Virus record (IMG/VR): IMGVR_UViG_3300033407_000037
Span: 1 to 44,293 of that record
From: a virus
Lineage: Duplodnaviria; Caudoviricetes
DNA length: 44,293 bases
Strand: one strand, 5' to 3'
The first letter of the stretch is position 1. Each line of letters starts with the position of its first letter. The notes beneath the pieces were generated by a model. That model saw only the letters and a program-made list of their open reading frames with translations. It was not told where the DNA came from and ran no database searches. Below are positions 3,401 to 44,293 of the stretch, in pieces. The translations under genes and the position numbers were made by a program.

Positions 3401-4618
3401 ATGGCTGATGTAAGCATCGCGACCGGCGCACGCGCCGACACCTCCCGAGGGCCGCGGGCGATCGCGTTCCTACCTGACGATGACCAGGTGGGCTACAAGT
3501 TTTACAACTCGGCGTGGGACATCTTCTACGTCAAGACGACGGACGGTGGGGCAACGTGGGGCACGCCCGTGGCGGTCACCGGCGGTTTCACCGACCTGAT
3601 CTTCGATATCTGGCCCGAGTGGTGGACGCCGGGCCACGAGACCAGCACCATCATTCACATCTGGTATTCGAGCACCGGGACCGATGACGTGCTCCACAAG
3701 ACGCTCGACACGTTGGACGACACGTTGACTGGCAACCCCGGCAACGCCGTCTACCTCGGGACGACGACGCTGGACGATGCGACCATCTTTGTGAGCGGCA
3801 CGATGGCGCGCAACGGAGATCTCTTCTGTGCGTTCTGTATCAACGGGACGACGGTCGAAAAAGGGTTCTACCGCTCGCAGGACGGCGGCGCCAACTGGAG
3901 CAGCCTCGACACGGGGTTCGTCGAAGCGGCGGGGGATATGTGCCACCTCTTCCCGGCTTCGGGCACCGGGGACGACGGGGACTGCTGGGCGCTCTACCAC
4001 GATGCCGACGCGGACGAGCTGAGCCTCAAACTGTGGGACGCCTCGCTCGGGAGCGCGTCGGAAACGGCCATCGTGGCGCTGGTGGAGGATGCGACGATCT
4101 ATCAGGGGCCATATGGGTTCGCGGGGGCGCTGTTCAGCGACGGCGATCTGTTCGTCTCGGCGGTGACCGAGCGGGATACGGCCACGGCAGATCATCGCTG
4201 CTTCCGGGTCGGTGGGATCGGGGATGTGGTGGAGCTGACGGCGATCACGACCAACATCGACGATCACTACTACCCCGCCCCGTTCATCGACCAGCTCACG
4301 GACGACATCTACGTCGCGTACAACGGGAAGCGGGACGGGTCCCAGGTGCTGGGCACCACCTCACAGATTTTCTACGTGAAGTCCACCGACGGTGGGACTA
4401 CGTGGTCCGCTGGCGACACGGCGTACATGGAGGGGGTGGAAGACGACATCGCGCGGTGCTGGGCGCCGCTCATGGGGCCGCGCTTCTACGTGACCTGGCG
4501 CACGCAGCCCTCGACCTCCGACATCCTGGGCAATGCGGTCAACAGCCTGACGTTCGCTGGCGGTGAGCCCGAACCCGGCCCCACCCTCCGCACCGTGCAG
4601 TCGAGCCTGCGATGGTAG
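3401..4618 (+). CDS. BNR/Asp-box repeat (sialidase-like beta-propeller) protein
   Basis: Three Asp-boxes: KTTDGGATW, RSQDGGANW, KSTDGGTTW. Confidence 0.7.
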   Translation: MADVSIATGARADTSRGPRAIAFLPDDDQVGYKFYNSAWDIFYVKTTDGGATWGTPVAVTGGFTDLIFDIWPEWWTPGHETSTIIHIWYSSTGTDDVLHKTLDTLDDTLTGNPGNAVYLGTTTLDDATIFVSGTMARNGDLFCAFCINGTTVEKGFYRSQDGGANWSSLDTGFVEAAGDMCHLFPASGTGDDGDCWALYHDADADELSLKLWDASLGSASETAIVALVEDATIYQGPYGFAGALFSDGDLFVSAVTERDTATADHRCFRVGGIGDVVELTAITTNIDDHYYPAPFIDQLTDDIYVAYNGKRDGSQVLGTTSQIFYVKSTDGGTTWSAGDTAYMEGVEDDIARCWAPLMGPRFYVTWRTQPSTSDILGNAVNSLTFAGGEPEPGPTLRTVQSSLRW

Positions 4619-12802: not shown

Positions 12803-15336
12803 CGACATACGACGCGGTTTACAAGTTGAGCGTGATGGCTCCCCGCTCGATTGATCCTGACGAGGAGACAGTCTTAACGCCCGTGGCTGGCGCGCAGCAT
12901 TCGGACAAGTTCCTCGTGGCCACGCGGGGCAGCATCTCGGACGCGCTCGGCTCCTACCAGCCCTATCTCCAACCCATCGCCGCGGGCCATCGGGGCCGCG
13001 TGGATGTCCGCAACAAGGCCGCCGCCATCGGCGTCATGTACTTCGAGGTCGTCAACCCCGCCCTCGTCCCAGGTGTCCCGCTCACGCGCTGGCTCGAAGC
13101 CTTCCTCGGCACGCTCGACGGACAGATCCGCGCGGGGGGCTTGCGCGCGCGCGCGTGGGAGAGTCTGGACAACGGGGCGACCTTCACGGCGTTCTGGACG
13201 GGGCGGCTGTACACGCTCGAACAGGTGGACTCGCCCGCCAAGTACCGGCTGGGGGTCCGCGAGTCGGGCGACGACCTCAAAGCCCTGGCGTGGGTCGGGC
13301 GGCCGCACAGTTCAATCGCGTATGTCGGATTCGCGACCTTGTTGCCGATCGCCGCGACGACCGTGCCCTACGGCCTGCTTCCGGTCGTCCGGCCGCTCAC
13401 GGGGACGATCAGCGAGCTCACATCCCCCCCTGACGCTTCGGTGCGGGTCATCGTGGTGGACGTGAATCACGTCAACCGCACCGACAACATCATCTCGCAG
13501 AACCTGCGGGAGCAACGGACGACCGCCCGCGTGCGCGTGAAGCGGCTCGATACCCAGGCGGTGGGCTTTTTCCACTACTACGCGCCCAACCTCCCCTCGG
13601 AGCAGAACGGGCTCGGCACGCATCACTTGCACCCGAGATTCATCCAGATCCAGGAGCTCGACACGATTGACGTGGGGTACATGGCGTTCCCGCCCAACGA
13701 CACGGCGGTCGAGACCTGGATTGAGCCGGAGTACGAGGCGTCGGACGCGACGCCCCTCCTCGTTGGAGACGTGCATCCCGTCACCCTCTGGAAGGCCCTC
13801 CTCGACGGGCACTTCGGCTACCTCTGGACGCCGCCCGAGCCGCTCCCGCCGGGCGTGAGCTACGGCGACCCCCACCTCGCCGTCCCCTACCACGCCGCCA
13901 AGTTCGACGAGCTCGAGGCGGACGACCGCTTTCCCTTGGTGCGGTTTGTCGTGACGGCGCGCGAGCCCCGCGGGAACTGGATACAGGAGCACATCCTCCG
14001 GCCGGCGAACCTCGCCTACTACTTCGACGGCGACGGGGTGCTGAACCCGATTGACCTCCGCAGGCCCACGGACGTGTCCGCTATCCCGACGATCACGGAT
14101 GACGATCTCCAGCTCGGGGCGCCCAAGGAGTGGGAGTACGACCGCAGCCGGGCCATCACGCGGGTGGACGCAGCCTACTACACCGACGACATCCAGAAGG
14201 TGGACGACGTGTATGCGGACACGGCCTTCTACCCGACAGTCAAGGGCGGGGCGCTGCAGGAAGTGCGCCACCCCATCACCATCCTCGACTTGGGCTCGAG
14301 CGATCTGGGCGACGAGCCGTTCGCGCTCGACGTGGCGGGATTCCGCGCGATGCCGGGGGAGTCGCTGAATGGGCAACCGCGGACGGACTACCTGCGCGCG
14401 CGCCTCGACGAGTTGGCGCATGACACGGCCCTACCCTTCGGGGTCGGCGCGCCCACCATGCCCCTGTCCTGCAAGCGGGGGAGCGCCGGGGATGCGCAGC
14501 TCGGGGAGCTACGGAAAATCAGTATCCGCTCCGTGCCCGACCCCGCGACGAACAAGCTCGGCGGCACCCGCGTCGTCCGGGTCGAGTCGCGCCACGAGCG
14601 CCAGGGGTTCGTACAACTCTCGGTGATGGACCTGGGCCTGCCCACCGTCGCAGGGGTTCCCACGCTGGGCCAGCCGGCGCAGGAAGTCGGCAACACGACC
14701 ATCGGGGCCACGACGCTCGTGACGCTCAACGCCGCGGGCGATCCGGTCGAGGTGCATTTCGCCGTGACGGACACGGGCGTGGGCACGGCCCCCGTGGAGG
14801 GGGACGCGCTGTGGACGCCGGTCCCGGGCCTCGTGCGCGCGACGGGAACGCTGACCTTCCGGCCGGGCACGCCGGGGAAGCGCATCTGGGTGCGGGGCCG
14901 CACGTTCCCCGACGTGCGGGTGAACTACGAGCTGCCGAGCGCGTGGGTTGCCGCCGGTGGCACAGGCCGGGTTGATCTGGCGACGATCGCGGCGCCCTCA
15001 TCGCCCGCGGGCTCGCTGCAGACCGCGCGGTCGTTCCGGGTGACGTGGACGAATGGTTCCGCCGACTTCCCGACGGAGCTGCTGATCGCGACCCCCACGA
15101 CCGATCCCCGCGTCGTGGTTACCCGGCTGCCGGCGGGGAGCACGCAGTACGACTTCCCGGGCGACACGGGGCTCCTGATCCAGCCCTCGACGACGTACCG
15201 CGTCGGCATCCGGCATTCGGTGGGGCCTGAGGCGGTGTCGGCCGAGGTGACGGTGGACGTGACCACGACGGCTGTTGAGCCGACGTTCCCGCCGATCATC
15301 ATTCCGCCCCGGCTCTTCGGCAAGGAGATCATCTAG
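12799..15336 (+). CDS. Tail tip/hub protein with C-terminal fibronectin-III-like domain
   Basis: 845 aa; position; FRVTWTN...LIQPSTTYRVGIR FN3 pattern. Confidence 0.6.
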   Translation: MTTYDAVYKLSVMAPRSIDPDEETVLTPVAGAQHSDKFLVATRGSISDALGSYQPYLQPIAAGHRGRVDVRNKAAAIGVMYFEVVNPALVPGVPLTRWLEAFLGTLDGQIRAGGLRARAWESLDNGATFTAFWTGRLYTLEQVDSPAKYRLGVRESGDDLKALAWVGRPHSSIAYVGFATLLPIAATTVPYGLLPVVRPLTGTISELTSPPDASVRVIVVDVNHVNRTDNIISQNLREQRTTARVRVKRLDTQAVGFFHYYAPNLPSEQNGLGTHHLHPRFIQIQELDTIDVGYMAFPPNDTAVETWIEPEYEASDATPLLVGDVHPVTLWKALLDGHFGYLWTPPEPLPPGVSYGDPHLAVPYHAAKFDELEADDRFPLVRFVVTAREPRGNWIQEHILRPANLAYYFDGDGVLNPIDLRRPTDVSAIPTITDDDLQLGAPKEWEYDRSRAITRVDAAYYTDDIQKVDDVYADTAFYPTVKGGALQEVRHPITILDLGSSDLGDEPFALDVAGFRAMPGESLNGQPRTDYLRARLDELAHDTALPFGVGAPTMPLSCKRGSAGDAQLGELRKISIRSVPDPATNKLGGTRVVRVESRHERQGFVQLSVMDLGLPTVAGVPTLGQPAQEVGNTTIGATTLVTLNAAGDPVEVHFAVTDTGVGTAPVEGDALWTPVPGLVRATGTLTFRPGTPGKRIWVRGRTFPDVRVNYELPSAWVAAGGTGRVDLATIAAPSSPAGSLQTARSFRVTWTNGSADFPTELLIATPTTDPRVVVTRLPAGSTQYDFPGDTGLLIQPSTTYRVGIRHSVGPEAVSAEVTVDVTTTAVEPTFPPIIIPPRLFGKEII

Positions 15337-16571
15337 TGGCCCTGACGTTCGAGCAGCAGCGGCCGGTCGAGATGTCCACCATCGGGGTGGGGCTCATCCT
15401 CGTGCCGCCCCGCGACGCGACGACCAACATCCCGTGGACGGGCGGCATCGAGATTGAACGCGCGCCCGACTCGGGTGGATCCCCCGGCACGCCCGTGAGC
15501 ATCGCGGTGCTCGACCACGTCCCTCCTGCCGGCGGCCGCTACATCGACCCGCGGCCGTGGACGACGGACGTGTGGTGGTATCGCTACCGGCCGGTGCGCG
15601 CGGGTGGGGTGGGAACGTTCGGCCCTTACGTGAGCGCCACGCCGGGGCTGTTCCCACGGGGGACCAAGCTGGGGATGCAGGCGGGGGACGCCGCCGCGTT
15701 CTACGCGGGCGTGCGCGGCGAGCCGCTATCCGACGGCGAGTACGCCCTCCGGTCAACTACGGGCGCAGGCTTGCAAGCAGCGCCTGACGTGAAGCTCGAT
15801 CCGGCGAACGGCATCCTCGAGGGCGGGGTGGTCCACAAGCTCTACCGCCATCGGGAGGAGATCACGGTTCAGGGAGCGGACGCGGACGGCGACGTGGAGG
15901 TGACCTTTGCCCAGCCGTACCAGAGTGCCCCGATGATCTTCGTCCGGGGTGGGCAGTACGTGACGTACTCGTCCGTGCTCGGGAACGTCATGCAGAAGCT
16001 GCGGCTGCAGGCCCTGGATGCGGACGCGAATGGATTCACCTCACGGACGCAGATCGTGAACACGGGGGTCACGACCGCGCAAACCGATGACTTCCCGGCT
16101 GCAAATCTCATCGACGCCGTCGGCGAGACCGCCGAAGTGAACCTCGACCCCGGCGGGGCGAACGACGACACCTACACTGTGCACTATTACGTCGAGGTGA
16201 CGCTGTCGTCACCCGGCGACGACCCGAACGTGGATCTGACGGTCGCGATCGAGACGAACGACGGGAGTGCATGGGTGGAGCGTGCGACGTTCGTCTACAG
16301 TCGCTCGACTGCGGGAACCTCCACGTTCTCGCACGAACAGAAACCGATCGTGGTGTCGGGGCTCGTTCTCGATACAGACATTCGCCTGCGGGCCAAGTCG
16401 TTCCTCGTCCACGATGCGACCGGCAGCTTCAAGGTGCAAGGAGGCGACAGCGGAGGCGGCGCGCCTGGGGCCTTCGCTGGCGTCACGTACACCACGGCAA
16501 CCGACGACGCGGACAGCGCAATCCCGGACGCTGGGGATCACGTCATTTGGGTGGCTCAGGAGGTCGTATGA
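15336..16571 (+). CDS. Tail fibre / receptor-binding protein
   Basis: N-terminal FN3-like IEIERAPD...WWYRYR; VTFAQPY..AP lectin-like motif; last large tail gene. Confidence 0.55.
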   Translation: MALTFEQQRPVEMSTIGVGLILVPPRDATTNIPWTGGIEIERAPDSGGSPGTPVSIAVLDHVPPAGGRYIDPRPWTTDVWWYRYRPVRAGGVGTFGPYVSATPGLFPRGTKLGMQAGDAAAFYAGVRGEPLSDGEYALRSTTGAGLQAAPDVKLDPANGILEGGVVHKLYRHREEITVQGADADGDVEVTFAQPYQSAPMIFVRGGQYVTYSSVLGNVMQKLRLQALDADANGFTSRTQIVNTGVTTAQTDDFPAANLIDAVGETAEVNLDPGGANDDTYTVHYYVEVTLSSPGDDPNVDLTVAIETNDGSAWVERATFVYSRSTAGTSTFSHEQKPIVVSGLVLDTDIRLRAKSFLVHDATGSFKVQGGDSGGGAPGAFAGVTYTTATDDADSAIPDAGDHVIWVAQEVV

Positions 16572-16855
16572 AAACGTGGGCGGACAGCGCGGGAGTGCGC
16601 CCGCCGGGGTTGAGCATGGACCGCGACGCTGGTCAGGGGCCGCCGCGGTGCTGCGCGCGGCGACTCGTGGCCGCCGACGCGCTGGTCCATTATGGCGACC
16701 TGCATCCCACCCGCCTCGCCAGGGTACTGGCGCGATTCCCCCACCTGGCGGACGTCCCGCTGGACCAGCTCTACCTGTGCGACGGCTGCCGGGGCACGAT
16801 CCGGCGCGAGGTGGTGCTCACGCGGGATGAGGAGCCAACCCTCAAGGTTCGCTGA
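16568..16855 (+). CDS. Hypothetical protein (Cys pairs CC and CxxC)
   Basis: AGGAGG RBS, ATGA overlap with the upstream stop. Confidence 0.55.
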   Translation: MKTWADSAGVRPPGLSMDRDAGQGPPRCCARRLVAADALVHYGDLHPTRLARVLARFPHLADVPLDQLYLCDGCRGTIRREVVLTRDEEPTLKVR

Positions 16856-17585
16856 GCAAAAAGTCGGAGCCGGTGGCGTACCCGGCGCACCAGGTCGTAT
16901 GTCCTTGATTCCAGGTGGCGCGGTAGACGCGGGGCGTATCGGACTCCATGCGGAGGTTCTCGACGCTCGGCACGTAGACTTGCGCTGTGGCGGTGTCCTG
17001 AATGATCTGGATGACGACATTACCCGTCGTGGTGTCCACCACTTTATCCTTCCAGAACCGGATAAAGCGCCGTGAGACAGCAATCTCGCCTCGCAGGTCG
17101 TCCCACTCGCTCGTTTTGTAGGCCATCGACCCGTCAAAATACTGGCGGATTATAGAATCCTGCCCGATGGGCGGGTCCTCGATTCCGCGCATGTGCACGG
17201 TGCTCTCGTAACAGCGGTAATCGAGTCGCCATGTGCGGGTCGAGAGATCGGACACGGCCGTCGCGGCAATGTTCGCGGTGAGCGTCCCGGCGGTGGCGGT
17301 CAGGGTGCCGCGCGCCTCGCGCTCGGCGCCGAGCTGATCGCCGACTCGCGTGAAGCCAGCCGGCACCGTCCAGGTGACCGCTGGAGCGGCCACGGTGTCC
17401 CCGTCGGCATTGACGGCGCCCGAGATCAGCCCCGACAGCGTGAGCGGGCTGCCGCGCCAGAATCCCGTGTCGGGATCCGCGACGAGCAGCTGCACGATGG
17501 CCGGCGGCTGGGAGTTGACTGGGGCCGCGGCGTCGCCGCAGGCGGCGAGGGCGAATAGCGTCAGGGCACTGATCGTAGTCCGCAT
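16842..17585 (-). CDS. Lipoprotein moron, possible superinfection exclusion
   Basis: Signal peptide with lipobox LAAC; AGGAGG RBS; opposite strand to the late genes. Confidence 0.7.
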   Translation of the reverse strand: MRTTISALTLFALAACGDAAAPVNSQPPAIVQLLVADPDTGFWRGSPLTLSGLISGAVNADGDTVAAPAVTWTVPAGFTRVGDQLGAEREARGTLTATAGTLTANIAATAVSDLSTRTWRLDYRCYESTVHMRGIEDPPIGQDSIIRQYFDGSMAYKTSEWDDLRGEIAVSRRFIRFWKDKVVDTTTGNVVIQIIQDTATAQVYVPSVENLRMESDTPRVYRATWNQGHTTWCAGYATGSDFLLSEP

Positions 17586-17645: not shown

Positions 17646-17674
17646 TTGGAAATCCCCGAGCCCGGGCCTATCTT
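17646..17674 (+). promoter_or_regulatory. Sigma70-like promoter upstream of the lysis cassette
   Basis: TTGGAA-17 nt-TATCTT; architecture mirrored at 36778-36806. Confidence 0.6.
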
Positions 17675-17684
17675 AGCTCCAGCA

Positions 17685-17714
17685 GGCCACGGTCGGCAGC
17701 AGGCCGGCGAGGGC
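17685..17714 (+). promoter_or_regulatory. Conserved leader element copy A (GGCCACG + 6-bp hairpin)
   Basis: GGCCACGGTCG-N9-CGGCGAGGGC shared with 36818-36847; stem GTCGGC/GCCGGC. Confidence 0.7.
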
Positions 17715-17751
17715 TTCAGGGGAGTCATCCCCTGGGGCCCTTTTTGCGTTT
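17711..17751 (+). terminator. Intrinsic terminator in the lysis leader
   Basis: 13-bp stem GGGCTTCAGGGGA/TCCCCTGGGGCCC (two G-U pairs), loop GTCA, then TTTTTGCGTTT. Confidence 0.8.
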
Positions 17752-17811
17752 CCCCTGACCTAGGGTGCGGCGCTGATCCAAGCGACGGAGATCATCGGAG
17801 GCCTGGGGCTC

Positions 17812-18027
17812 GTGCCCAACGTGGCGGCGGCCGTCTGGCTCGTCTACGGCGGGGCGAAGCTGTGGCAGACGCTCCGCGGGGGCAACGGCAACGGCAAGGC
17901 GATCGCCGCGCAGCTGCGGTGGCTGCGCGAGCAGCTGAAGGAGGACGTCGCCGACGCGAACACGCTCTTGCTCGCGCGCTTCGAGCTCCTCATCGGCAAC
18001 GCGATCCGGGAGGCCCGCCGTGGCTAG
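17812..18027 (+). CDS. Small membrane protein (holin/antiholin-like); start may be further upstream
   Basis: N-terminal hydrophobic helix then charged helix; GGAGG upstream. Confidence 0.5.
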   Translation: MPNVAAAVWLVYGGAKLWQTLRGGNGNGKAIAAQLRWLREQLKEDVADANTLLLARFELLIGNAIREARRG

Positions 18028-18328
18028 GGTCCTCGTGGTCGACGACGATCCCAGCGTGCTCCGCCTGATGCTGACCTGGCTCGCCGAGGCGGGCTATGAC
18101 GCGATCGGCGCGAGCCGGGTCCGCGAGGCCCAGCTGCTGCCGGGCCCGTTCGCGGCGCTGGTGCTCGACATCGGGTTGCCGAACGGCCAGCCGCGGGACG
18201 TGCAGGCGGCGCATCCGGGCGTGCCGACGCTCACCGTCTCGGGCGATCTCCAGGCCAATCTCCGCAAGCCCTTCGTCGGCCGGGACCTGGTGGGGGCGGT
18301 GCAGTCGCTGATCGGAGGCGGGACATGA
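18020..18328 (+). CDS. Stand-alone response-regulator receiver domain (CheY-like)
   Basis: VLVVDDD, phospho-acceptor D50 (LVLDIGLP), S74, K83-P-F. Confidence 0.85.
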   Translation: MARVLVVDDDPSVLRLMLTWLAEAGYDAIGASRVREAQLLPGPFAALVLDIGLPNGQPRDVQAAHPGVPTLTVSGDLQANLRKPFVGRDLVGAVQSLIGGGT

Positions 18329-18609
18329 GGCTCACGCACAGCCACAGGCAGCTCCAGGCGCTCCAGGCCATTCCCGGCTCACGGCGCCGCACCAAGGTGC
18401 TCCGCTCGATCGTGGGCACCCTGGTGTTCGTGGGCGCCTGGTTTCTTCCCAAGTGGTTGGGCTTCCCCCAGGCCGTCGCCTACATCGTCGGCGGCTTCGG
18501 CGCCTTCATCGTCAGCCAGGACCTGGTGGGCACCTTCTTCCGGCTCGTGCCGGCGGTCATCGCGGACGTCGTGCTCGCTTTTCGCGGTCAGCGTGCCGGA
18601 CCGCCGTAG
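18325..18609 (+). CDS. Putative holin (2-3 transmembrane segments)
   Basis: Hydrophobic helices, basic N-terminus, directly before the endolysin. Confidence 0.55.
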   Translation: MRLTHSHRQLQALQAIPGSRRRTKVLRSIVGTLVFVGAWFLPKWLGFPQAVAYIVGGFGAFIVSQDLVGTFFRLVPAVIADVVLAFRGQRAGPP

Positions 18610-19054
18610 CCCGCGCCAGCTCGCGCTCGAGGAGGCCGAACGTCAACTCGGCACCTATTACTCCTGGTCGGGCGACGACCCTGGTGGCTTCGATTGCAGC
18701 GGGCTGCAGAACCACGTGCTCAAGTCGCCCGGCACGATCCCGCGCCGCGTGCGTCTGACCGCACAAGGCTTCTACGATCGCTGGCCGGCGCGGCGCTTCA
18801 CGCCTGATGCGCCCCAGCTCCTGCGGCCTGGCGTGTTGGTGTTCTGGAAGCGCCCCGACGGTACCGTGCGCCACGTCGAGATGGTCTTCGAGATCCTGAC
18901 CGACGGCACGGTCGTCACGATCGGCGCGTCGGGCGGCGGGCCGAACACCAAGACGCTCGCCGACGCCATCCGTGACAACGCCTTCGTGCAGCTGCGGCCG
19001 CTCGCCCCTGGGTGGGCCGCGGGCGTCGATCCCTTCTTCGGGGAGACCCCATGA
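18593..19054 (+). CDS. NlpC/P60 peptidoglycan peptidase (endolysin)
   Basis: YSWSG...GFDCSG, PGVLVFW, catalytic-type His in RHVEM. Confidence 0.85.
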   Translation: MPDRRSPRQLALEEAERQLGTYYSWSGDDPGGFDCSGLQNHVLKSPGTIPRRVRLTAQGFYDRWPARRFTPDAPQLLRPGVLVFWKRPDGTVRHVEMVFEILTDGTVVTIGASGGGPNTKTLADAIRDNAFVQLRPLAPGWAAGVDPFFGETP

Positions 19055-19341
19055 ACGAGTACCTGGCGGACGACAACTTCCAATCGGAAGACAAGGCGGT
19101 CCACCTCCTGCTGGGGATGCTGCTCGCGATCCTCGTGCGCCACTACGTCTGGGCGGGTTGGCAAACGGGCATCTTCGCGATCGTGGTGCTCGGCTGGGAG
19201 GTGTTCGAGTTCCTGCGGTGGCGCGCGTGGCAGGCGAAGGCGGCGCCAGCGCCGCGGCCGTGGGCCTGCGACCTCCTGAGCTGGCGCGACGTCGTCGCGG
19301 GCTGCGCGGGCGGGTTGCTCGCAGCGGTACTCAGGTTGTGA
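19051..19341 (+). CDS. Membrane protein with DKxxH...WExxE...D motif (VanZ/YfiM-like)
   Basis: EDKAVHLLLG, LGWEVFE, SWRDVVA with three hydrophobic segments; ATGA overlap. Confidence 0.55.
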   Translation: MNEYLADDNFQSEDKAVHLLLGMLLAILVRHYVWAGWQTGIFAIVVLGWEVFEFLRWRAWQAKAAPAPRPWACDLLSWRDVVAGCAGGLLAAVLRL

Positions 19342-19604
19342 CCGAGCTCGGCCAGGCCGCGCCTGACGATAGGTGGCTCAAGCACCCGGGCCAGTGGCGC
19401 GGGACGCTGCCTGAAGCGGGTGGGCGCTCGGCAAACGTCTCATGCCCGAAGTGTGGCCACGCTGCGTCGCTGTCAGATCACACGATCAAGCCCGATGGCA
19501 CCGTCGAGCCATCGCTCGTGTGCGCCTACGATGGCTCGACGCCGGATCTCTCGCCGGCGTGTGACTTCCACGACCAGGTGCGTCTCATCGGATGGGCGCC
19601 ATGA
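19338..19604 (+). CDS. Small Cys/His zinc-binding protein
   Basis: CPKCG...H...PSLVC...CDFH; GTGA overlap. Confidence 0.6.
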   Translation: MTELGQAAPDDRWLKHPGQWRGTLPEAGGRSANVSCPKCGHAASLSDHTIKPDGTVEPSLVCAYDGSTPDLSPACDFHDQVRLIGWAP

Positions 19605-19666
19605 CGTGGTGGGAGGCGGTGCTTCTCGTCTGGGCGACGTGGTGGACGGCGATCGCGCATGAGTAG
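19601..19666 (+). CDS. 21-aa Trp-rich hydrophobic micro-ORF (MTWWEAVLLVWATWWTAIAHE)
   Basis: ATGA overlap with upstream stop and overlap with next start; below the ORF-track cutoff. Confidence 0.45.
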   Translation: MTWWEAVLLVWATWWTAIAHE

Positions 19667-19892
19667 ATCGGCACTGTTCTGGACCAGCTGCGCGGCGGCG
19701 CTGCTCGCGAGCGCGGCGACGGCGGCGGCGATCCCGCACCAGGCGCCGCGCGTCTGCTGTCGGGCCGTCCTGCCCCCTAAGGGCGACACCGTGCGGCTGG
19801 CGGTGATCTGCGCCGACGTGTACCCCCGGGATTCGCTGGGGGCTGTGCGGATCACGCGGGCCTGGGCGCCCGAGAAAGAAAGGGCACGATGA
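19659..19892 (+). CDS. Small secreted protein
   Basis: Signal-peptide-like N-terminus; overlapping operon arrangement. Confidence 0.45.
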   Translation: MSRSALFWTSCAAALLASAATAAAIPHQAPRVCCRAVLPPKGDTVRLAVICADVYPRDSLGAVRITRAWAPEKERAR

Positions 19893-20494
19893 GCGGCCGC
19901 GGCGTGGGACTCGGGACGATTGTGGTCGCGGCGCTCGCCGGGGCCTTCCTCGCCGGCGACTGTCGCGGCGGCGGGGAGGCCCGGGCCGAGCGGGAGCGAT
20001 GGGCTGCGAAGCTCGCGGTGGAGGCAGAGTCAACGGCGGCGTGGCGGATCCGGGCGGCGGCCGCGGCCGCCGAGGCGCAGCGGCTGCGCGAGGACTCGGC
20101 GCGCGTGTACCCCGCCTGGGGACTCGCTCGCGAGGCCGCCGATGCCGGGCTCGCCGCAGTGCGCGAGCTGGCGCGCAGCCGGCTGGCGGCGGGCGATACG
20201 GCGGGGGCGCGGGTCGTTGAAGCGGCGGCCAATGCGGCGGATGCCGAGCGGGCCGCCTGCTCCGTCGTGGTGGTGAACTGCGAGGCGCGGGCGGCGACCG
20301 CCGAGACGGCCCGGGCGGATGCCGCGGGCCGCGTGGACTCCCTGGCGGCGGTGCTCGACACGACGGGGATCAAGCTGCAAGCCGCCGAGCGCCGAGCCTC
20401 GTCGGGCTTCCTCGGCCTCCGCGACCTCTGGCGCGCCAAGGAGGAGCTCGGCGCCGTCGTCCTCCTACTCTTGGGTCTCACGGTCGTCAAGTAG
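19889..20494 (+). CDS. Spanin-like coiled-coil membrane protein
   Basis: N-terminal hydrophobic segment ending FLAGDC, long Ala-rich helix, C-terminal hydrophobic tail; last lysis gene. Confidence 0.55.
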   Translation: MSGRGVGLGTIVVAALAGAFLAGDCRGGGEARAERERWAAKLAVEAESTAAWRIRAAAAAAEAQRLREDSARVYPAWGLAREAADAGLAAVRELARSRLAAGDTAGARVVEAAANAADAERAACSVVVVNCEARAATAETARADAAGRVDSLAAVLDTTGIKLQAAERRASSGFLGLRDLWRAKEELGAVVLLLLGLTVVK

Positions 20495-21508: not shown

Positions 21509-21901
21509 ATGCCGACCCCTCTCACTGCTGGGATTCCCGTCTCTATCGACCAGGCCCGCGCCCAGCTGCGGGCATCGGGCTGGGTCGAGCTGCTGTCGGG
21601 CCTCCGGGGCGACCTCGCCAACATGCGGCGGTTCGGTGAGTTCAAGACCACCGCGGCCCAGATCGCCGTTGACGCCCGGCTCGACGAACTCGACGCCGCG
21701 TTGCGCGAGGTGGGCGAGCAAGTGGTCTACGGCCCCCCGCGGAACAGCGAAACCGCCCAAGAGGACTTGAGAAATGCCGCGGCACTCCTGACGCTCGCCG
21801 CGGTGGATGCCCAGGGCCAGGTCGTGCTGTCCCGCGCGGAGTGCGAGGCCATCCTCGGGCGGCTCGAGCGGGCCTACCGGAAGCTGGAGGGGCCGGCATG
21901 A
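21509..21901 (+). CDS. Hypothetical protein sharing the LRASGWVELL module with 32775-33215
   Basis: Operon position; internal paralogous motif. Confidence 0.6.
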   Translation: MPTPLTAGIPVSIDQARAQLRASGWVELLSGLRGDLANMRRFGEFKTTAAQIAVDARLDELDAALREVGEQVVYGPPRNSETAQEDLRNAAALLTLAAVDAQGQVVLSRAECEAILGRLERAYRKLEGPA

Positions 21902-28318: not shown

Positions 28319-28359
28319 GACCGACCGACCGACCGACCGACCGACCGACCGACCGACCG
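28319..28359. repeat. (GACC)10 tetranucleotide simple sequence repeat
   Basis: Ten perfect units plus G, counted directly, inside the short ORF 28284-28373. Confidence 0.95.
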
Positions 28360-28369
28360 GGTGTCCCCG

Positions 28370-32778: not shown

Positions 32779-33215
32779 CCGACCGTCCCGAGGGGCGCCC
32801 GCCGACAGACCACCCTGAAGCGTTCTGCCAGCGATGCAAGCGCCCAAACATCGTGTGGTTCGCGCAGAGCGAACTCTGGAATCGCGTGATGCGGCAGCCC
32901 GGTGTAACGGAGGGCATCGTCTGTCCGGTCTGCTTCGTGCAAGCGGCAGAGCGCGCGGGGATTAAACCTTCCTCGTGGGAAGTCAGGCCCGACGGCGCGA
33001 TGTATCCGATGGGCGACCTGGGGGGAGCGCCCCGTGGGGAACCGGGTCGCGCCGCCGCGTTGCGCGCCTCGGGCTGGGTGGAGCTGCTGTTCGGCGTGCG
33101 CAACGACCTCGCGAGCATGCTACGAAATGAGAAGTTGAGCGTCGTTGGCAAGGAGGCTGCGACGTTGTGGGTCGCCGACATCGACGCGGCCCTGGCGGCG
33201 GTGCGCCCCGCGTGA
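32775..33215 (+). CDS. Hypothetical protein (CxxC zinc domain plus LRASGWVELL module)
   Basis: CQRC...CPVC; motif shared with 21509-21901. Confidence 0.6.
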   Translation: MTDRPEGRPPTDHPEAFCQRCKRPNIVWFAQSELWNRVMRQPGVTEGIVCPVCFVQAAERAGIKPSSWEVRPDGAMYPMGDLGGAPRGEPGRAAALRASGWVELLFGVRNDLASMLRNEKLSVVGKEAATLWVADIDAALAAVRPA

Positions 33216-33409
33216 GCCAGGCTGTGGTCGAGCGCCCGCCCGTCCCGCCACGGGACGCTATCTTGACGACGGAGCAGCTCGCGGAGTGGCTGCAGATCAG
33301 CCCCGAGCAGGTCCGGCGCCTGGGCCTGCCGGCCATCGCCGTCGGCAAACGGAAGTGGCGCTACCTGATGAGCCAAGTGCTGGACGAACTGGAGAAGCGA
33401 GCGGAATGA
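33212..33409 (+). CDS. xis: Excisionase-like HTH protein
   Basis: ILTTEQLAEWLQIS...LPAIAVGKRKWRY; directly upstream of the integrase. Confidence 0.75.
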   Translation: MSQAVVERPPVPPRDAILTTEQLAEWLQISPEQVRRLGLPAIAVGKRKWRYLMSQVLDELEKRAE

Positions 33410-34443
33410 CGCCACACCAGGACCGCGGGCAGGGCACGTTCCTCCTCGATCGCCGCATCGGCAAGCTCGGGCGGCTGAAACGCGCGTCCGGCACGACCGA
33501 CCGAGAGGAGTTCGCCGCGCTCAACGCGATGCTCACCCGGCTCACGCGCGAGCGCCGGTGGGACCTGCTCGGCCTCGTACAGCAGCACCTCGTGACGCCG
33601 CTCGAGTTGTACGACCGGATCCACCGCGGTGAGACGCACCTCCTGCCGAGTGCCGAGGAGTTGCGCTCGCTGCCGCGCTCGATCGAAGGCTGGTTGCGCG
33701 ACGCCGACCTCGCGGACCGGACGAAGGAGGACTACGCGAAGCGGCTGCAGTTCCCGGCGGCCACCCGCGTGGCAGCCCTCCCGGAGATCCTGACCGCGGC
33801 GCGGGTGGCGGCGATCCAGTCCGGCAAGCGGGCGACGTTCAACAACATGCTCGACGCGGCGCGGGCATTCGTCCGCGATGTCCTGAAGCCCGAGCACAAG
33901 CTCTACCGGGCGCTCCCCACGGCGCTCGACGTGACGCGCCGCGCCGGCAATCCCCAAGAGCCCGACCAGGTCCGCGTGCTCGCGCAGGGCTGGCTCCACG
34001 CGGATAGCCTGTGGGCGCTCTGCCTGACGGCGATGCGTCGCGGCGAATACTGGGGCACGTGGGACGCGCTGAGCGATCGCGTGCAGATCCAGGGCGTGAA
34101 GGGCCGCCGCGGCGTCCCGCTCCCGCGCGTCGTACCAATGGTCTATCGACCGGCGCGGCCCACGGTGGCCTACTCCACGTTCTACCACCAGCTCGTCGAT
34201 CGGAGCGAGGGCGCGCTGAACGTCCACGACCTGCGGAAGACGGCGCAGCGGTGGTGGGAGGATGCCGGGATCCCCGACTGGCGGATTCGGCTGTACGCGG
34301 GTCACGCGCGGGGCGGGCAGGAGCTGGCGACGATCTACCGGAAGCCCCGCGACCTCACCCGCCTGCTCGTCGAGGATGGGGAGCGGATGCGGGCCTGGCT
34401 CGGCGATCCCCCGAAGGTGGGATTGCGGGTGGCGTCGGCATGA
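33406..34443 (+). CDS. int: Tyrosine integrase/recombinase
   Basis: LTAMRRGE (R), VKG (K), HDLRKT (HxxR), YAGH, TIYR (Y). Confidence 0.85.
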   Translation: MTPHQDRGQGTFLLDRRIGKLGRLKRASGTTDREEFAALNAMLTRLTRERRWDLLGLVQQHLVTPLELYDRIHRGETHLLPSAEELRSLPRSIEGWLRDADLADRTKEDYAKRLQFPAATRVAALPEILTAARVAAIQSGKRATFNNMLDAARAFVRDVLKPEHKLYRALPTALDVTRRAGNPQEPDQVRVLAQGWLHADSLWALCLTAMRRGEYWGTWDALSDRVQIQGVKGRRGVPLPRVVPMVYRPARPTVAYSTFYHQLVDRSEGALNVHDLRKTAQRWWEDAGIPDWRIRLYAGHARGGQELATIYRKPRDLTRLLVEDGERMRAWLGDPPKVGLRVASA

Positions 34444-35644: not shown

Positions 35645-36099
35645 CCGCCAGCATGAAGCCGATCGGCCAGACGTTCGCGCCGCGCACCTTCTGGTCCACG
35701 ATGATCTATCGGTGCGATCGCTGCGGGTTCGAGATCGAGTTCTACCTCGAGGAAGGCTGCGAGGGGCCGCGCGAGGTGGAGTACGACATCATCATCCAGG
35801 AGGGCCCGCGCTCTGGTGAGCCGTCGACCTGGTGGAAGACCGCGAGCGGCCGGCGGATCGTGCCGGTGCCGTTCGTCGCTGGCGGTTGCCCAAAGTGCCA
35901 GGGCGCGCCGCCCTGGGCGATGGATCGACACGCTGGCGTTCTCAGTCATGTCGACTGGCAGCGCGATCGCGACCTAACGCCGCGGCTTGTCGGACTCCCG
36001 GCTGGTACGGCGCGCTTCCACTACCCCGCCGATCTGAAGGATCCCCAGGCCTGTGGGATCCCGATCTTCCCGCCCTATTCGATGCGAGGCCAGGCGTGA
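35641..36099 (+). CDS. Zinc-binding hypothetical protein
   Basis: CDRC...CPKC. Confidence 0.6.
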   Translation: MTASMKPIGQTFAPRTFWSTMIYRCDRCGFEIEFYLEEGCEGPREVEYDIIIQEGPRSGEPSTWWKTASGRRIVPVPFVAGGCPKCQGAPPWAMDRHAGVLSHVDWQRDRDLTPRLVGLPAGTARFHYPADLKDPQACGIPIFPPYSMRGQA

Positions 36100-36404
36100 G
36101 CGACCACGAGACCACGCTCGAGCGCGGCGTCCCCGCCGGCGCCGGCCTGAACCCCGGGCAGCTCGGCGTCCTGCTGACCAGTCCGTACAGCGAGGACCTG
36201 GTCGAGACCCTGAAGACCCTGCCCCGGGGCGATCGCTGGTGGGACGAGGAGCGCGAGGGCTGGTGGATCGCGGCCGCGCACGAGGCGTTCGTGATCGAGG
36301 CCGCGATCGCGCACCTGGGCGGCGTGAAGGTCCTCGGGCTCGAGGGGGAGTCGGACTGCGTTATTGACCGGCACGGCCGGACGGTTCAAGAGAGGCTCCT
36401 GTGA
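36096..36404 (+). CDS. Hypothetical protein (HARP-like motif)
   Basis: PYSEDLVETLK.LP...RWWD.....W. Confidence 0.55.
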   Translation: MSDHETTLERGVPAGAGLNPGQLGVLLTSPYSEDLVETLKTLPRGDRWWDEEREGWWIAAAHEAFVIEAAIAHLGGVKVLGLEGESDCVIDRHGRTVQERLL

Positions 36405-36664
36405 CCGCCGCCGCGTCCGCCCCGGCGAAGTTCCCCCTGCGGGCCCGGTGTCGCTGCCGAGCCCGGAGCACGGACACGGGCGGTGCGCTGCCGATCCGCG
36501 TGTTCGAGGCGGCCGCCGTGCTCCTCCGCCAGGCCCTCGGTGGGACGATCTCGCCGCTCGTCGCGAACCTGCCGGTGCAGGATTACCGCTGCCCCGAGTG
36601 CAAGGAGATCGTCGTCGTGCGGCTGGGGGACTTCCTAGGGGTGAGCGCCGCCGAGATTGTCTAG
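36401..36664 (+). CDS. Zinc-ribbon protein, candidate late regulator
   Basis: CRC...YRCPEC; last early gene before the late promoter. Confidence 0.5.
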   Translation: MTAAASAPAKFPLRARCRCRARSTDTGGALPIRVFEAAAVLLRQALGGTISPLVANLPVQDYRCPECKEIVVVRLGDFLGVSAAEIV

Positions 36665-36777
36665 CGCCCACCAGGGCTAGATTGCAGGTCAACGTATTGC
36701 CCCGGGGGCAACGCATGACCGAGTTCGAGCAGCAGGTAGAGACGACCATGCCGGCGTTCGGTCGGCGGGCTGTGATG

Positions 36778-36806
36778 TTGTAAAAGCCACGCGCCGGCGA
36801 TAGATT
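36778..36806 (+). promoter_or_regulatory. Sigma70-like late promoter for the packaging/head operon
   Basis: TTGTAA-17 nt-TAGATT. Confidence 0.65.
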
Positions 36807-36817
36807 GCTGGCGAGAC

Positions 36818-36847
36818 GGCCACGGTCGAGACCTGCTCGGCGAGGGC
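36818..36847 (+). promoter_or_regulatory. Conserved leader element copy B (GGCCACG + 6-bp hairpin)
   Basis: GGCCACGGTCG-N9-CGGCGAGGGC; stem GTCGAG/CTCGGC. Confidence 0.7.
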
Positions 36848-36879
36848 CCCCAGGCAACTGCTTGGGGGCTTTCTCGTTT
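36846..36879 (+). terminator. Intrinsic terminator in the head-operon leader
   Basis: 10-bp stem GCCCCCAGGC/GCTTGGGGGC, loop AACT, then TTTCTCGTTT. Confidence 0.75.
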
Positions 36880-36886
36880 CCGGGCT

Positions 36887-37147
36887 GTGCTATCCATCGT
36901 GAGCAGGCCGAATCGCGGGCGACGGTGGATGGCGATGCGGGCGCTGGTGCTCGCCGAGGAGCCGCTGTGCCGGCCGTGCCGCGCGAAGGGCCGCGTGACC
37001 GCGAGCGAGGAAGTCGACCACATCGTGCCGCTCGAGGACAGTGGGACGGACGACCGTGAGAACCTGCAGGGCATTTGCATTGAGTGCCACAAGGTCAAGC
37101 ACGGTGCCATGCCGAGGGTGGGTGTGGATGGATGGCCGACCGAGTAG
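36887..37147 (+). CDS. Packaging-associated HNH endonuclease (HK97 gp74-like)
   Basis: W...R..VL..EPLC..C...VDHIVPL..G.....NLQ.IC..CH..K; upstream of terS. Confidence 0.9.
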   Translation: MLSIVSRPNRGRRWMAMRALVLAEEPLCRPCRAKGRVTASEEVDHIVPLEDSGTDDRENLQGICIECHKVKHGAMPRVGVDGWPTE

Positions 37148-37215
37148 GGGGGGGCTGCAATCTCTGCGAGCACAGTGCCGGAGACCGCCCGTTGGCTTCG
37201 CTTTTATAAACGGCC
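37148..37215. other. Candidate cos region
   Basis: Non-coding gap between HNH and terS beginning with a G-run, the usual cos position in HK97-like phages; exact cut site not determinable. Confidence 0.4.
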
Positions 37216-37252
37216 CCGATGCTGAAATCGGAAAAGGAAATCGAATCGCGCC

Positions 37253-37456
37253 ATGAGACTTGTGAAGCTGTTGATCCAGGGAGATCTCGACAGCGGCAAG
37301 GTGCAGATCGCCGGCCCGATCGCGGACATGCGCGTCATGCACTGGCTGCTCGGCGAGGCCCGTCGGTGCGTCGAGCGCGAAGCGACGAACCGGGAAGCGG
37401 CGGGGGGCAACGGCAAACCGTCGCTGATCGTGGTGCCGGAGGTGCGGCTTGGGTAG
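37253..37456 (+). CDS. Hypothetical protein
   Basis: Overlaps terS start; plausible codon usage. Confidence 0.5.
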   Translation: MRLVKLLIQGDLDSGKVQIAGPIADMRVMHWLLGEARRCVEREATNREAAGGNGKPSLIVVPEVRLG

Positions 37457-37862
37457 GCGGGGACGCACGTCGGCGGCGGCGCTCGAGCTCGTCTCGACGA
37501 CACGGAAGACGGCCGATTCCCGACGTCCAGCCCCACCGGGGGACTTGACGTCTGAGCAAGCAGACGAGTGGCGCGGCATCGTGGCCCGATGCCCGGCGGA
37601 TTGGTTCCCGCGCGAGACGTATCCGTTGCTCGCCCAGTACTGCCGGCACGCGGTCTCGGCGCGCTGGCTCGGGAAGCTGCGGGATCGGCTCGAGCGGGCA
37701 CGGAAGTTCAACCTGGACGAGTACGAGCGCATCTCGAAGCTGATCCGGGGCGAGACCGGGTCCCTGGCGTCGCTGGCGACGAAGATGCGGCTGAGTCAAC
37801 ACGCGACCTATGACAAGAAAAAGTCCAAAGGCCCGACGCTCCCCGCGCCGTGGGAAGACTGA
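37449..37862 (+). CDS. terS: Terminase small subunit
   Basis: MGRRG...PAPP.DL......W..IV...P.DWF...LLAQYC...LATKMRLS; GGAGG RBS. Confidence 0.8.
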   Translation: MGRRGRTSAAALELVSTTRKTADSRRPAPPGDLTSEQADEWRGIVARCPADWFPRETYPLLAQYCRHAVSARWLGKLRDRLERARKFNLDEYERISKLIRGETGSLASLATKMRLSQHATYDKKKSKGPTLPAPWED

Positions 37863-39399
37863 GACGCGGGGTGCGCGCAACATCCGCTGGATCGAGAAGC
37901 ACTGCTGCATCCCGGAGGGTGCGTATGTGGGGCAGCCGGTGAAGCTATGTGAGTTCCAGCGCGCGATCGTGCGGGGGATCTACGACACGCCGACGCGGCG
38001 CGCGATCGTCTCCTTCGCCCGGAAGAACGCGAAGACGACACTCGCCGCCCTCCTTCTGGTGCTACATACCGCAGGCCCCGAAGCGCGGGAGAACTCGCAG
38101 CTCTACAGCGCCGCCCAGTCCCGTGACCAGGCGGCGATCGTGTTCGCCCTCGCGGCGAAGATCATCCGACTGTCCCCCGAGCTTTCGGCGCACGTCACCG
38201 TGCGGGACACCGCCAAGGAGCTCTACTGTCCCGGCCTCGGCACGCGCTACCGGGCGCTGTCGGCGGAGACGTCGACCGCCTACGGCCTCTCGCCGGCGTT
38301 CACCGTACACGACGAGCTCGGCCAGGTGCACGGGCCGCGCTCCGAGCTCTACGAGGCGTTGGAGACGGCGACGGCCGCACAGGCTAACCCGCTCTCGATC
38401 GTGATCTCCACGCAGGCCCCGACGGACGCGGATTTGCTGTCGATTCTCATCGACGATGCCCGGTCCGGCGCGGATCCCGCCGTGAAGTGCTTCCTCTATG
38501 CCGCGGACCCCGAGGCGGATCCGTTCGACGTCGCGACGATCCGGCAGGCGAATCCCGCATTCGACGAGTTCCAGAACCAGGACGAGGTCCTGGCGATGGC
38601 GGAGGCGGCGCGGCGCATGCCATCGCGCGAGGCCGAGTATCGCAACCTGATTCTGAACCAGCGGGTCGAGCGGGTGAGCCCGCTGATCTCGGTGTCCGTC
38701 TGGAAGGCCAACGGGAGCGCCCCAACCGGGGACTGGAGTGAGGGTCCGGTGTACGGGGCGCTCGATCTCTCGTCCACCACGGACCTCACGGCTTGTGTCT
38801 GGGTGATGGAACGCGACGGCGTGTGGCACGTCCGGCCGCTCTTCTGGCTGCCCGAGCTGGGACTCCGCGAGCGCGCGCGGCAGGACCGCGTGCCCTACGA
38901 CGTCTGGCACGAGCAGGGGCATCTCCTGACGACGCCCGGCAAGTCGATCGCCTATGAGTACGTCGCCCAGGAGCTGGTGCGCATGCTCGAGTCGATGGAC
39001 GTGCGCAAGGTGGGGTTCGACCGCTGGAACCTGCGGCACTTCAAACCCTGGCTCGTCAAGGCCGGGCTGCCTGAGGAGCGGATCGGTGATCCGGCAGCCC
39101 CCCGGCCGACGGACCTGTTCGCCGCCTTTGGGCAGGGCTTCAAGGACATGACGCCGGCGGTGCGCACGCTCGAGACGGCGCTGCTGAACAGCACGCTCCG
39201 GCATGGCAACCATCCGGTGCTGACGATGTGCGCCGCGAACGCGGTGGTGAAGGGCGACGAGGCGGGCGGGCGGAAGCTCGACAAGCTCCGGAGCCGCGGC
39301 CGGATCGACGGCATGGTCGCGCTCGCGATGGCGCTGTCGGTCGCGAGCGAGGGGGCCCCCTCGCTCGGGTTCGTGGACGAGCCGCTGGTGGTGCTATGA
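37810..39399 (+). CDS. terL: Terminase large subunit
   Basis: ARKNAKT Walker A, VHDELG Walker B, ISTQ, ANP, GALDLS, RIDGMVA. Confidence 0.95.
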   Translation: MTRKSPKARRSPRRGKTETRGARNIRWIEKHCCIPEGAYVGQPVKLCEFQRAIVRGIYDTPTRRAIVSFARKNAKTTLAALLLVLHTAGPEARENSQLYSAAQSRDQAAIVFALAAKIIRLSPELSAHVTVRDTAKELYCPGLGTRYRALSAETSTAYGLSPAFTVHDELGQVHGPRSELYEALETATAAQANPLSIVISTQAPTDADLLSILIDDARSGADPAVKCFLYAADPEADPFDVATIRQANPAFDEFQNQDEVLAMAEAARRMPSREAEYRNLILNQRVERVSPLISVSVWKANGSAPTGDWSEGPVYGALDLSSTTDLTACVWVMERDGVWHVRPLFWLPELGLRERARQDRVPYDVWHEQGHLLTTPGKSIAYEYVAQELVRMLESMDVRKVGFDRWNLRHFKPWLVKAGLPEERIGDPAAPRPTDLFAAFGQGFKDMTPAVRTLETALLNSTLRHGNHPVLTMCAANAVVKGDEAGGRKLDKLRSRGRIDGMVALAMALSVASEGAPSLGFVDEPLVVL

Positions 39400-40706
39400 G
39401 GCTGTTCGGCTTCGAGATCACCCGTCCCCAGGCGAAGACGCTGACGCTGGACCAGCTCATCCAGCGCCTCGATGCGCTGATGGCGACCGTCAGTGGGATT
39501 CCCGTCACGCCCGATTCGGCGATGGAATCGCCCACGGTGCAGGCCATCGTGCAGGCCGTGGCGGGGACGATTGCGACGCTTCCCGTCCACGTGCTCCAGA
39601 AGACGACGAGCAAGGGCCGAACCACGAAGGAGCCACTGCCGGGTCACCCGGTAGCGCGCCTGCTGTCGGCCCCGAACGACACCCAAGACCGGGTGACGTA
39701 CTGGCTCGACGCCGCGAGCTGGTTGATCCGCTACGGGAACCATTATGCGCCGAAGGCGCGCGGGTTGACGGGGCCGATCCGCCGGCTGATCGGGGTCCCG
39801 CCGAGCGACGTCGTCGTGGAGCAGCACGACGACCGCAGTCTCGGCTACCGCATCGGCACGGACCCGGAGCGCACGGCGGCCCAGATGCACCATGTCCGCG
39901 GCCCGGCCCGGAACGGCTATCTGGGCAACTCGCCCGTCATGGACGTGCGGGAAGCGATCGCCCTCGAGATCGCGGCGGAACGCTTCGGGGCGTCGTTCTT
40001 CGGCAACGGGGCCACGCCGTTCCTGGTCTTCAAGTACGCGGTGGGGTCGCAGGGGCATAAGAGCAAGGAGGCGCGCGATCAGTTCATCAACGAGTTCGAG
40101 AATGCCTACGGTGGCCGCAAGACGATGCGCGGCCTGCTCATGCCGGCGGGGATGGAGGCACCACTCCCCGTCGAGATCAACAACGACCACGCGCAGTTCC
40201 TCGAAACACGGAAGCTGCAGCGGACGATCATCGCGGGCGCCTTCGGCGTGCCGCCGCATCTCGTCGGGGACCTGGAACGCGCCACGTTCTCCAACATCGA
40301 GCACCAAAGCCTGGAGTTCGTGCAGCGGGTCCTGCTGCGCTACGTGCGGATGTTCGAGGCGGCGATGGAGCGCGACCTCCTGACCCCCGAGGACCGCTCG
40401 TCGGGGGTCATCATCCGGTTCAACATGGACGCGATGCTGCGCGGGGACTTCAAGACGCGGCAAGAGGGCCTCCGGATCCAGCGCGACGCCGGCGTCATCA
40501 ACGCGAACGAGTGGCGCGAGCATGAAGGTCTCAACCCGCGGGACGACGAGGGCGGAGAGCTCTACTGGGACAAGGGCCCGTCTGGCCAGGGATCGGAACC
40601 CGAGCCGCCTGAGCCGGAGCCCGAGCCCAACGACAACGGCAACGGGAACGGTGATACAGCGACCCGGGGACTGCGGCATCTGCCAACGATAGGTGGGACT
40701 CGATGA
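39396..40706 (+). CDS. Portal protein, HK97 family
   Basis: IATLPVH, PN, GN.YA, G.SP, FFGNGATP, AFGVPPHLVG...ATFSNIEHQ, NE.R..EGLNP. Confidence 0.95.
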   Translation: MRLFGFEITRPQAKTLTLDQLIQRLDALMATVSGIPVTPDSAMESPTVQAIVQAVAGTIATLPVHVLQKTTSKGRTTKEPLPGHPVARLLSAPNDTQDRVTYWLDAASWLIRYGNHYAPKARGLTGPIRRLIGVPPSDVVVEQHDDRSLGYRIGTDPERTAAQMHHVRGPARNGYLGNSPVMDVREAIALEIAAERFGASFFGNGATPFLVFKYAVGSQGHKSKEARDQFINEFENAYGGRKTMRGLLMPAGMEAPLPVEINNDHAQFLETRKLQRTIIAGAFGVPPHLVGDLERATFSNIEHQSLEFVQRVLLRYVRMFEAAMERDLLTPEDRSSGVIIRFNMDAMLRGDFKTRQEGLRIQRDAGVINANEWREHEGLNPRDDEGGELYWDKGPSGQGSEPEPPEPEPEPNDNGNGNGDTATRGLRHLPTIGGTR

Positions 40707-43059: not shown

Positions 43060-43071
43060 CCCACTCGCTGA

Positions 43072-43101
43072 TGGAGCGGGGCGCAGGCCGGCCCCGCTCC
43101 A
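43072..43101 (+). terminator. GC-rich hairpin after the capsid gene (attenuator or mRNA stabiliser)
   Basis: 11-bp TGGAGCGGGGC/GCCCCGCTCCA, no U-tract. Confidence 0.55.
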
Positions 43102-43115
43102 CCGGCAGGGCGCTC

Positions 43116-44284: not shown

Positions 44285-44293
44285 GGGCGGTGA
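44160..44293. repeat. Terminal direct repeat, copy 2
   Basis: Matches 1-134 with one mismatch. Confidence 0.95.

Follow-up and report, generated by a model that had tools for sequence, protein, structure and literature searches.

The two late gene blocks of a temperate siphophage are each preceded by a leader in which a promoter-like site is followed by a short repeated sequence, predicted to fold into an RNA stem-loop, and by an overlapping terminator-like hairpin. The two units lie at positions 17646-17753 (before the lysis genes) and 36778-36881 (before the HNH, terminase, and head-tail genes) of a 44,293-nucleotide viral record (IMGVR_UViG_3300033407_000037), the whole of which is referred to here as the window. 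The reading that we prefer, to which we give an even chance, is that these leaders form an RNA antiterminator switch gating both late blocks, which would be off by default until a phage factor acts. A first-pass annotation of this DNA had described a common promoter-leader-terminator architecture at both late units, and all the features that it listed are present in the sequence.

The window is probably a complete temperate siphophage genome, with a GC content of 68.5%. A 134-nt direct repeat is found at its two ends (positions 1-134 and 44160-44293); hence, the record, although classed as linear, is probably a complete circular genome. A helix-turn-helix (HTH) repressor is encoded on the minus strand near 21280, and a ParB-like gene is present. 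The packaging/head operon begins on the plus strand with an HK97-like block (HNH, terS, terL, portal, Clp protease, and capsid; 36887-44293) and, past the point where the circle closes, goes on with head-tail and tail genes up to about 16855. The lysis cassette (17812-20494, plus strand) consists of membrane proteins, a receiver-like domain, an NlpC/P60 endopeptidase (18593-19054; above the Pfam cut-off), and a putative spanin-like gene, so assigned from its sequence. These are the downstream genes that the first-pass annotation had named. A lipoprotein-like gene on the reverse strand (16842-17585) parts the tail genes from the lysis genes, so that there are two late units; this split of the late operon may be the reason that lysis needs its own leader. 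Where the window has this gene, the closest relative that we found (G001) carries other reverse genes.

Other features of the genome were recorded in passing. The second gene of the lysis cassette, the stand-alone receiver-like domain (18020-18328), is unusual content for a lysis operon and is 96% identical in G001. It is 102 aa long and has no output domain, its match to PF00072 (E value, 0.0011) is below the cut-off, and it matched 0 of 401 host-phylum genomes at 1e-12. Genes for an xis-like HTH protein and an integrase-like protein (33167-34443) sit within the rightward early operon and are followed by a noncoding gap (region to 34640); on the minus strand, a promoter-like site lies in this gap at 34550. 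The early region also contains a tandem run of a 4-nt unit (28319-28360) and a 68-nt repeat (78% identity) between two early genes (21559-21626 and 33053-33120). Sequence matches suggest, and do not prove, that the host belongs to the Gemmatimonadota: a homologue of a window gene was found at an E value of 6e-18 in 1 of 401 genomes of this phylum, and the promoter form TTG-N20-TAGATT, described below, is frequent in five genomes of which four are from this phylum. A search with terL gave matches in 3 of the 401 (28 to 34% identity) and in none of the 12 genomes of a first set.

Both promoter-like sites are on the plus strand and have a 17-nt spacer. The first, ahead of the lysis cassette, has its −35 hexamer at 17646-17651 and its −10 hexamer at 17669-17674; the corresponding positions at the second are 36778-36783 and 36801-36806. 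A scan for the E. coli consensus calls neither site, each having 8 of 12 consensus matches. The exact promoter pattern, which was derived from these two sites, occurs only at them in the window (mean of 0.0 in 40 Markov simulations), and a looser pattern is not enriched (4 sites seen versus 4.2 expected). In five bacterial genomes (four Gemmatimonadota and one Acidobacteriota), the form of the second site, TTG-N20-TAGATT, gave 53 matches, compared with 2 for the control. Between the two sites, the start of the leader is identical at 3 of 10 positions, and the distance from the −10-like hexamer to the repeat described below is 10 nt in copy 1 and 11 nt in copy 2. A second TAGATT hexamer lies 123 nt upstream of promoter 2 (region 36678-36783). 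Downstream of it come a small hairpin, which covers a possible ribosome site, and a 22-codon open reading frame (ORF) (36715-36783) whose stop codon falls within the −35 box, an arrangement resembling that at G001 4174.

The repeat consists of 11 and 10 bases flanking a variable stretch of 9 (11-N9-10). It occurs twice in the record, at 17685 and 36818, with 21 of 21 bases identical, and none of 40 Markov-simulated windows contained a gapped repeat of this kind. We folded the leaders computationally at growing lengths, and all structures given here are predictions. The 21 bases fold into a single 31-nt structure with a 4-bp lower stem, a 3-by-3 internal loop, a 6-bp upper stem, and a variable 5-nt loop. 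Copy 1 (17685-17715, plus strand) has a predicted energy of −18.1 kcal/mol (z-score, −2.40), and its lower stem reaches 5 bp with the 17684-17716 pair; copy 2 (36818-36848, plus strand) has the same geometry and an energy of −17.4 kcal/mol (z-score, −1.11). The internal loop, ACG opposite GAG, is invariant in both copies. All 10 pairs are kept in both copies, with two compensatory changes and one one-sided change. Thus, both the 21 identical nucleotides around N9 and the 6-bp hairpin preserved by two compensatory changes were correctly described in the first-pass annotation. Identity is complete (21/21) across both stems and the internal loop, which is unpaired, compared with 3/9 in the apex and 3/8 in the upper arm of the terminator, and falls near background in the flanks (9/30 and 11/30). 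The invariant T.G wobble and the asymmetric loop would fit an RNA better than a DNA dyad. Full-length folds also showed a three-way junction in which the box pairs with the tail. We rejected it because its 3′ strand would not be free at the point of termination, and keep it as a possible read-through fold.

Each leader ends in a terminator-like hairpin on the plus strand. The first (17709-17753) has 15 pairs at 17709-17742 and a T-rich tail; the second (36842-36881) has 14 pairs at 36842-36873 and a weaker tail. As previously noted, the two stems differ in sequence and nevertheless pair; the common tail motif noted with them is also present, but it ends two bases beyond the ends then given. 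The z-scores are −5.45 and −5.31, and none of 200 shuffles was equally stable. Of the three sites in the window that combine a hairpin with a T-tail, these two are the strongest, and a consensus scan does not call the second, with its weak T-tract. The same hairpin-plus-T-tail scan found no further strong terminator within the late operons, so that local read-through would suffice. The stem-loop overlaps the terminator by 7 to 8 nt in copy 1 and by 7 nt in copy 2; since the lower stem occupies the first 7 to 8 bases of the terminator 5′ arm, the two folds are mutually exclusive. In computed folds, the pairing probability of the lower stem is 0.96 to 1.0 before the 3′ arm of the terminator emerges and drops to about 0 thereafter. 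Once that arm is complete, the terminator fold is favored by 8.1 kcal/mol (copy 1) and 7.1 kcal/mol (copy 2), and a stabilizing factor is therefore likely to be needed. When the lower stem was forced, the terminator kept only 7 pairs, and its hairpin no longer adjoined the T-tract.

In the mechanism that we propose, host polymerase would start at each promoter-like site, and the nascent leader would fold first into the 31-nt antiterminator stem-loop. The stronger overlapping terminator would then displace the lower stem and release an RNA of 60 to 70 nt, with termination probably near +62 to +70. Because the terminator would displace the stem-loop unless a factor holds it, neither block would be expressed before that factor is present. 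Late in infection, a phage-made RNA-binding factor would keep the lower stem and the internal loop closed, and both units would then be read; this factor would presumably recognize the invariant ACG/GAG internal loop and the flanking pairs. Read-through would be local and nonprocessive, the terminator having been cut to 7 pairs and set back from the T-tract. Antitermination of both late units, as the first-pass annotation proposed, is the best reading of the leaders, but the nut-like arrangement of a box plus a hairpin that it had in mind is probably wrong, because the box pairs with the 5′ base of the terminator and belongs to a single stem-loop that excludes the terminator.

Such a competition has counterparts in known systems. 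Like the RAT elements of BglG, SacY, and LicT, the phage stem-loop has an internal loop, overlaps the 5′ arm of a terminator by 7 to 8 nt, and is predicted to exclude it. The account of licS gives an 8-nt overlap between antiterminator and terminator, the terminator being the more stable (PMC5393181). RAT is described as having two asymmetric internal loops (PMC3369936), whereas the phage element has one symmetric 3-by-3 loop and an unrelated sequence. It also precedes late phage genes rather than sugar operons, and there is no CAT_RBD or PRD match among the phage ORFs. In ANTAR systems, according to the same account, formation of the antiterminator leaves a shorter terminator at a distance from the U-tract, and the motif is found before several operons (PMC3369936). 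The phage leaders resemble those of EutV, NasR, and AmiR in that the terminator would be shortened and set back from the T-tract and in that one motif stands ahead of two operons. Unlike the ANTAR tandem of P1 and P2 with A1 and G4, the phage has a single hairpin with a 5-nt loop (A..G5), and no ANTAR-domain protein is found among its ORFs.

Several controls bear on how much weight the stem-loop can carry. By chance, the two extra pairs would both be canonical in each copy with a probability of 0.6 to 2.3%, and a random box would yield the lower stem in this register with a probability of 3 to 9%. Among 38 generic terminators with the same base, 1 matched the stem-loop energy of copy 1 and 3 that of copy 2, with both strands counted and the rows not independent. 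A random GC-rich leader, however, formed at least 4 pairs with the terminator base in 73 to 75% of 2,000 trials, and about 27% reached the same energy; competition alone therefore proves little. The z-scores of the stem-loop are modest, 3 of 200 shuffles (copy 1) and 32 of 200 (copy 2) folding as well, and a pair-shuffle control (115 of 500) is uninformative, as two sequences cannot show covariation. The 3′ ten bases of the repeat, together with the tail, are common in ordinary gene-end terminators of high-GC bacteria (a pattern-selected set, L227 to L346), so that part of the 21 identical nucleotides is common terminator sequence. One terminator of this set (L297) matches at four more bases immediately upstream and also resembles the leaders in its tail. 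Overall, the evidence for the stem-loop is of moderate strength.

We compared the leaders with those of related phages. G001, which is 66% complete, has the lysis and immunity regions and much of the early region in common with the window. At the lysis leader, the homologous stretch has its first base at exactly 17705 of the window, which lies within the repeat, and G001 retains the lysis terminator without the stem-loop. The G001 leader was considered as a third copy of the stem-loop and rejected (pair probability, <0.1; z-score, +0.63). G001 has strong terminators at four late positions (4209, 10858, 15305-15349, and 28649). Close upstream of these are −10-like hexamers, and no leader motif is obviously common to them; another zinc-ribbon ORF (about 4235-4462) begins inside the first of them. 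In a second phage, G002 (contig position 12406, minus strand; L103), an internal late promoter is followed by a stem, an internal loop, and a stem overlapping a terminator. This element has a 5-nt loop and the same topology with a different sequence, and its terminator is favored by 4.5 kcal/mol. A related promoter lies at a similar place in G003, where there is no clear terminator. Just before the G002 HNH promoter lies a 62-aa ORF (L009, 738-926) that looks DUF2292-like and has no Pfam match; a PF10055 gene, as expected near DUF2292-linked leaders, was found in 0 of 5 records. Across the fetched loci, 28 of 344 promoter-like sites were followed by a terminator-like hairpin, and the general layout is therefore not rare.

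Searches for further copies found none. An exact-pattern scan of viral sequences gave two loci, both within a coding sequence; a scan for the terminator pattern gave G001 and one chance match in coding sequence; and a promoter-plus-loop pattern gave 12 loci, none with both stem-loop and terminator. A metagenome scan (1 of 64 parts) gave 119 loci, and among the matches listed only L189 has the layout; it is identical to copy 1 and possibly the same DNA. A genome scan (42 of 64 parts) gave 120 loci, with generic terminators among the best 60 of 262 rows. The pattern matched 129 of 401 host-phylum genomes, and none of 20 places hand-picked from more than 150 had promoter and terminator; three of the 20 were one coding gene. 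A covariance model built from the two copies (R1) likewise gave no further homologue: nothing fell under an E value of 0.2 beyond its own copies in 96 sources, and its best match elsewhere (E value, 0.0077; 49 sources) was the chance match in coding sequence. Of 45 R1 matches in 39 of 151 genomes, 20 were fetched, and all were without promoter and terminator. A structure descriptor run over 1.7 Mb gave 19 matches, and among the matches listed a terminator is found solely at the window copies. GenBank phages yielded no stem-loop match better than an E value of 0.1. Comparison of 38 HNH loci (40 to 59% identity) revealed no third copy and was uninformative, and the read set X1, possibly the source of the record, contained no variant of the second leader. 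In Rfam, no match in the window rose above the gathering threshold (the best local E values, 0.058 and 0.3, were far below the thresholds), so no known family was matched. With no third copy or factor found, a new antitermination system, the candidate reading of the first-pass annotation, is not established.

Family searches returned no Q, N, NusG, CAT, PRD, ANTAR, Com, or DUF2292 match among the phage ORFs (74 and 58 ORFs in Pfam, 74 in PHROGs, 99 in NCBIfam, and two six-frame family searches), in agreement with the earlier observation that no Q or N homologue is recognizable. This absence is weak evidence because most early ORFs have no family at all. A scan for Arg/Lys-rich stretches flagged four in the phage ORFs, none a credible N. 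The best positional candidate for the factor, and a tentative one even if the model holds, is an 87-aa protein with four cysteines (CxC...CxxC) encoded by the last sizeable early gene (36401-36664, plus strand). This gene is absent from G001 (66% complete), as is the stem-loop; a HARP-like gene (36096-36404) is a poorer candidate because it is common to G001 (92%). A full-library search with the 87-aa protein gave 14 matches, of which ten were aligned (A4; four long repetitive proteins were left out), all keeping CxC...CxxC. The family matched no Pfam family above an E value of 0.001, and a single-sequence structure model of the 87-aa protein was poor (pLDDT, 57) and had no fold match at an E value of ≤0.001; Atlas look-alikes are leads only. 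The only homologue with DNA context (G200:C83:118-342, L441; 45% identity over 84 aa) is in a genome of the Gemmatimonadota phylum, behind a nucleotidyltransferase-like gene and 90 nt from the contig end. No stem-loop was found in these 90 nt, and the genome had no convincing R1 match. This context suggests a cellular role for the family and supports the host assignment.

The small four-cysteine protein nearby and the unpaired GAG in the RNA recall Com and mom of phage Mu. The SELEX core reported for Com is GAG-N2-CC or CC-N2-3-GAG (PMC6483171), and each copy of the phage element fits one, different, half of it, with GAG in an internal loop rather than in a hairpin loop. The first cysteine pair of the 87-aa protein is CxC, unlike that of Com, and PF10122 was matched by 0 of 5 records at an E value of ≤1 and by 0 of 10 family members. 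Com, moreover, activates translation. We regard as rather unlikely the fuller proposal that the 87-aa protein and its nine relatives are a new family that binds the ACG/GAG internal loop as a phage RNA antiterminator of the RAT style, replaces Q in temperate Gemmatimonadota phages, and is exchanged together with the hairpin.

A processive mechanism of the Q, AlpA, P7, N, or put kind, in which a factor or an RNA modifies polymerase, is possible but clearly less probable than the local switch; the hairpin would then be a loading site or incidental, and its overlap with the terminator a by-product of GC content. The promoter-proximal terminator is a lambdoid layout: as at lambda pR′/tR′ with Q and in the Pseudomonas AlpA and Xp10 P7 systems, a host-type promoter, a short leader, and an intrinsic terminator precede lysis or virion genes. 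As with lambda N/nut and HK022 put, an RNA element lies just downstream of the promoter in two operons. In lambda, nut combines boxA with a GNRA-like boxB, and N is an arginine-rich protein; no boxA or boxB was apparent here, and the phage loops are not GNRA-like by eye. The ease with which random leaders pair with the terminator base and the four G001 late terminators without a common hairpin also favor a processive mechanism. P7 is described as binding polymerase and reading through late terminators (PMC6624301). AlpA is described as having no sequence homology to Q (PMC7969949), so that a missing Pfam match does not exclude such a factor. However, the spacer between −35 and −10, where Q and AlpA bind, is unconserved between the two phage sites (7 of 17 positions identical), there are two late units, and all the conservation lies in the transcribed stem-loop. 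The late operons, in addition, contain no downstream terminators that call for processivity. HK022 put is described as about 70 nt long, with two stem-loops, and constitutive (PMC9378689). Its two long stem-loops contrast with the single 31-nt stem-loop of the phage, and put acts on early genes without the help of a protein.

It is unlikely that there is no switch, that is, that the leaders are constitutive attenuators with read-through fixed by folding kinetics or that the 60- to 70-nt RNA is itself the product (a small RNA or decoy). No regulator was matched in the family searches, the stem-loop is computed to form first in transcription, and the second T-tract is weak, all as a constitutive leader would have it; but a leaky lysis promoter would presumably be costly to a lysogen, the invariant internal loop suggests a binding partner, and there is no Rfam match. 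A DNA-level feature without RNA function (a duplicated promoter-terminator cassette, a module-exchange linker, or a protein or recombinase site) is very unlikely: G001 homology does begin exactly inside the repeat, the 11-9-10 layout is somewhat like that of a recombinase core, and the phage has the xis/integrase-like pair, but 6 of the central 9 bases differ between the copies with pairing still kept, the dyad is imperfect identically in both copies, and the flanks are near background.

We conclude that an RNA antiterminator switch for the late genes of this phage is plausible and unproven, and that its mechanism, if it works as predicted, would be of a kind known from RAT and ANTAR. So far the sequence has been found in a single phage, which limits the weight of this conclusion. 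In the open literature (subscription papers were outside the scope), we found no phage late RNA antiterminator of this kind; the late switches found there (Q, AlpA, and P7) modify polymerase, whereas the local RNA switches of RAT and ANTAR are described for metabolic operons. If the preferred reading is true, the phage element would be a compact, 31-nt protein-responsive switch, and an overlapping antiterminator hairpin would explain the onset of late gene expression in lambdoid phages without a recognizable Q.
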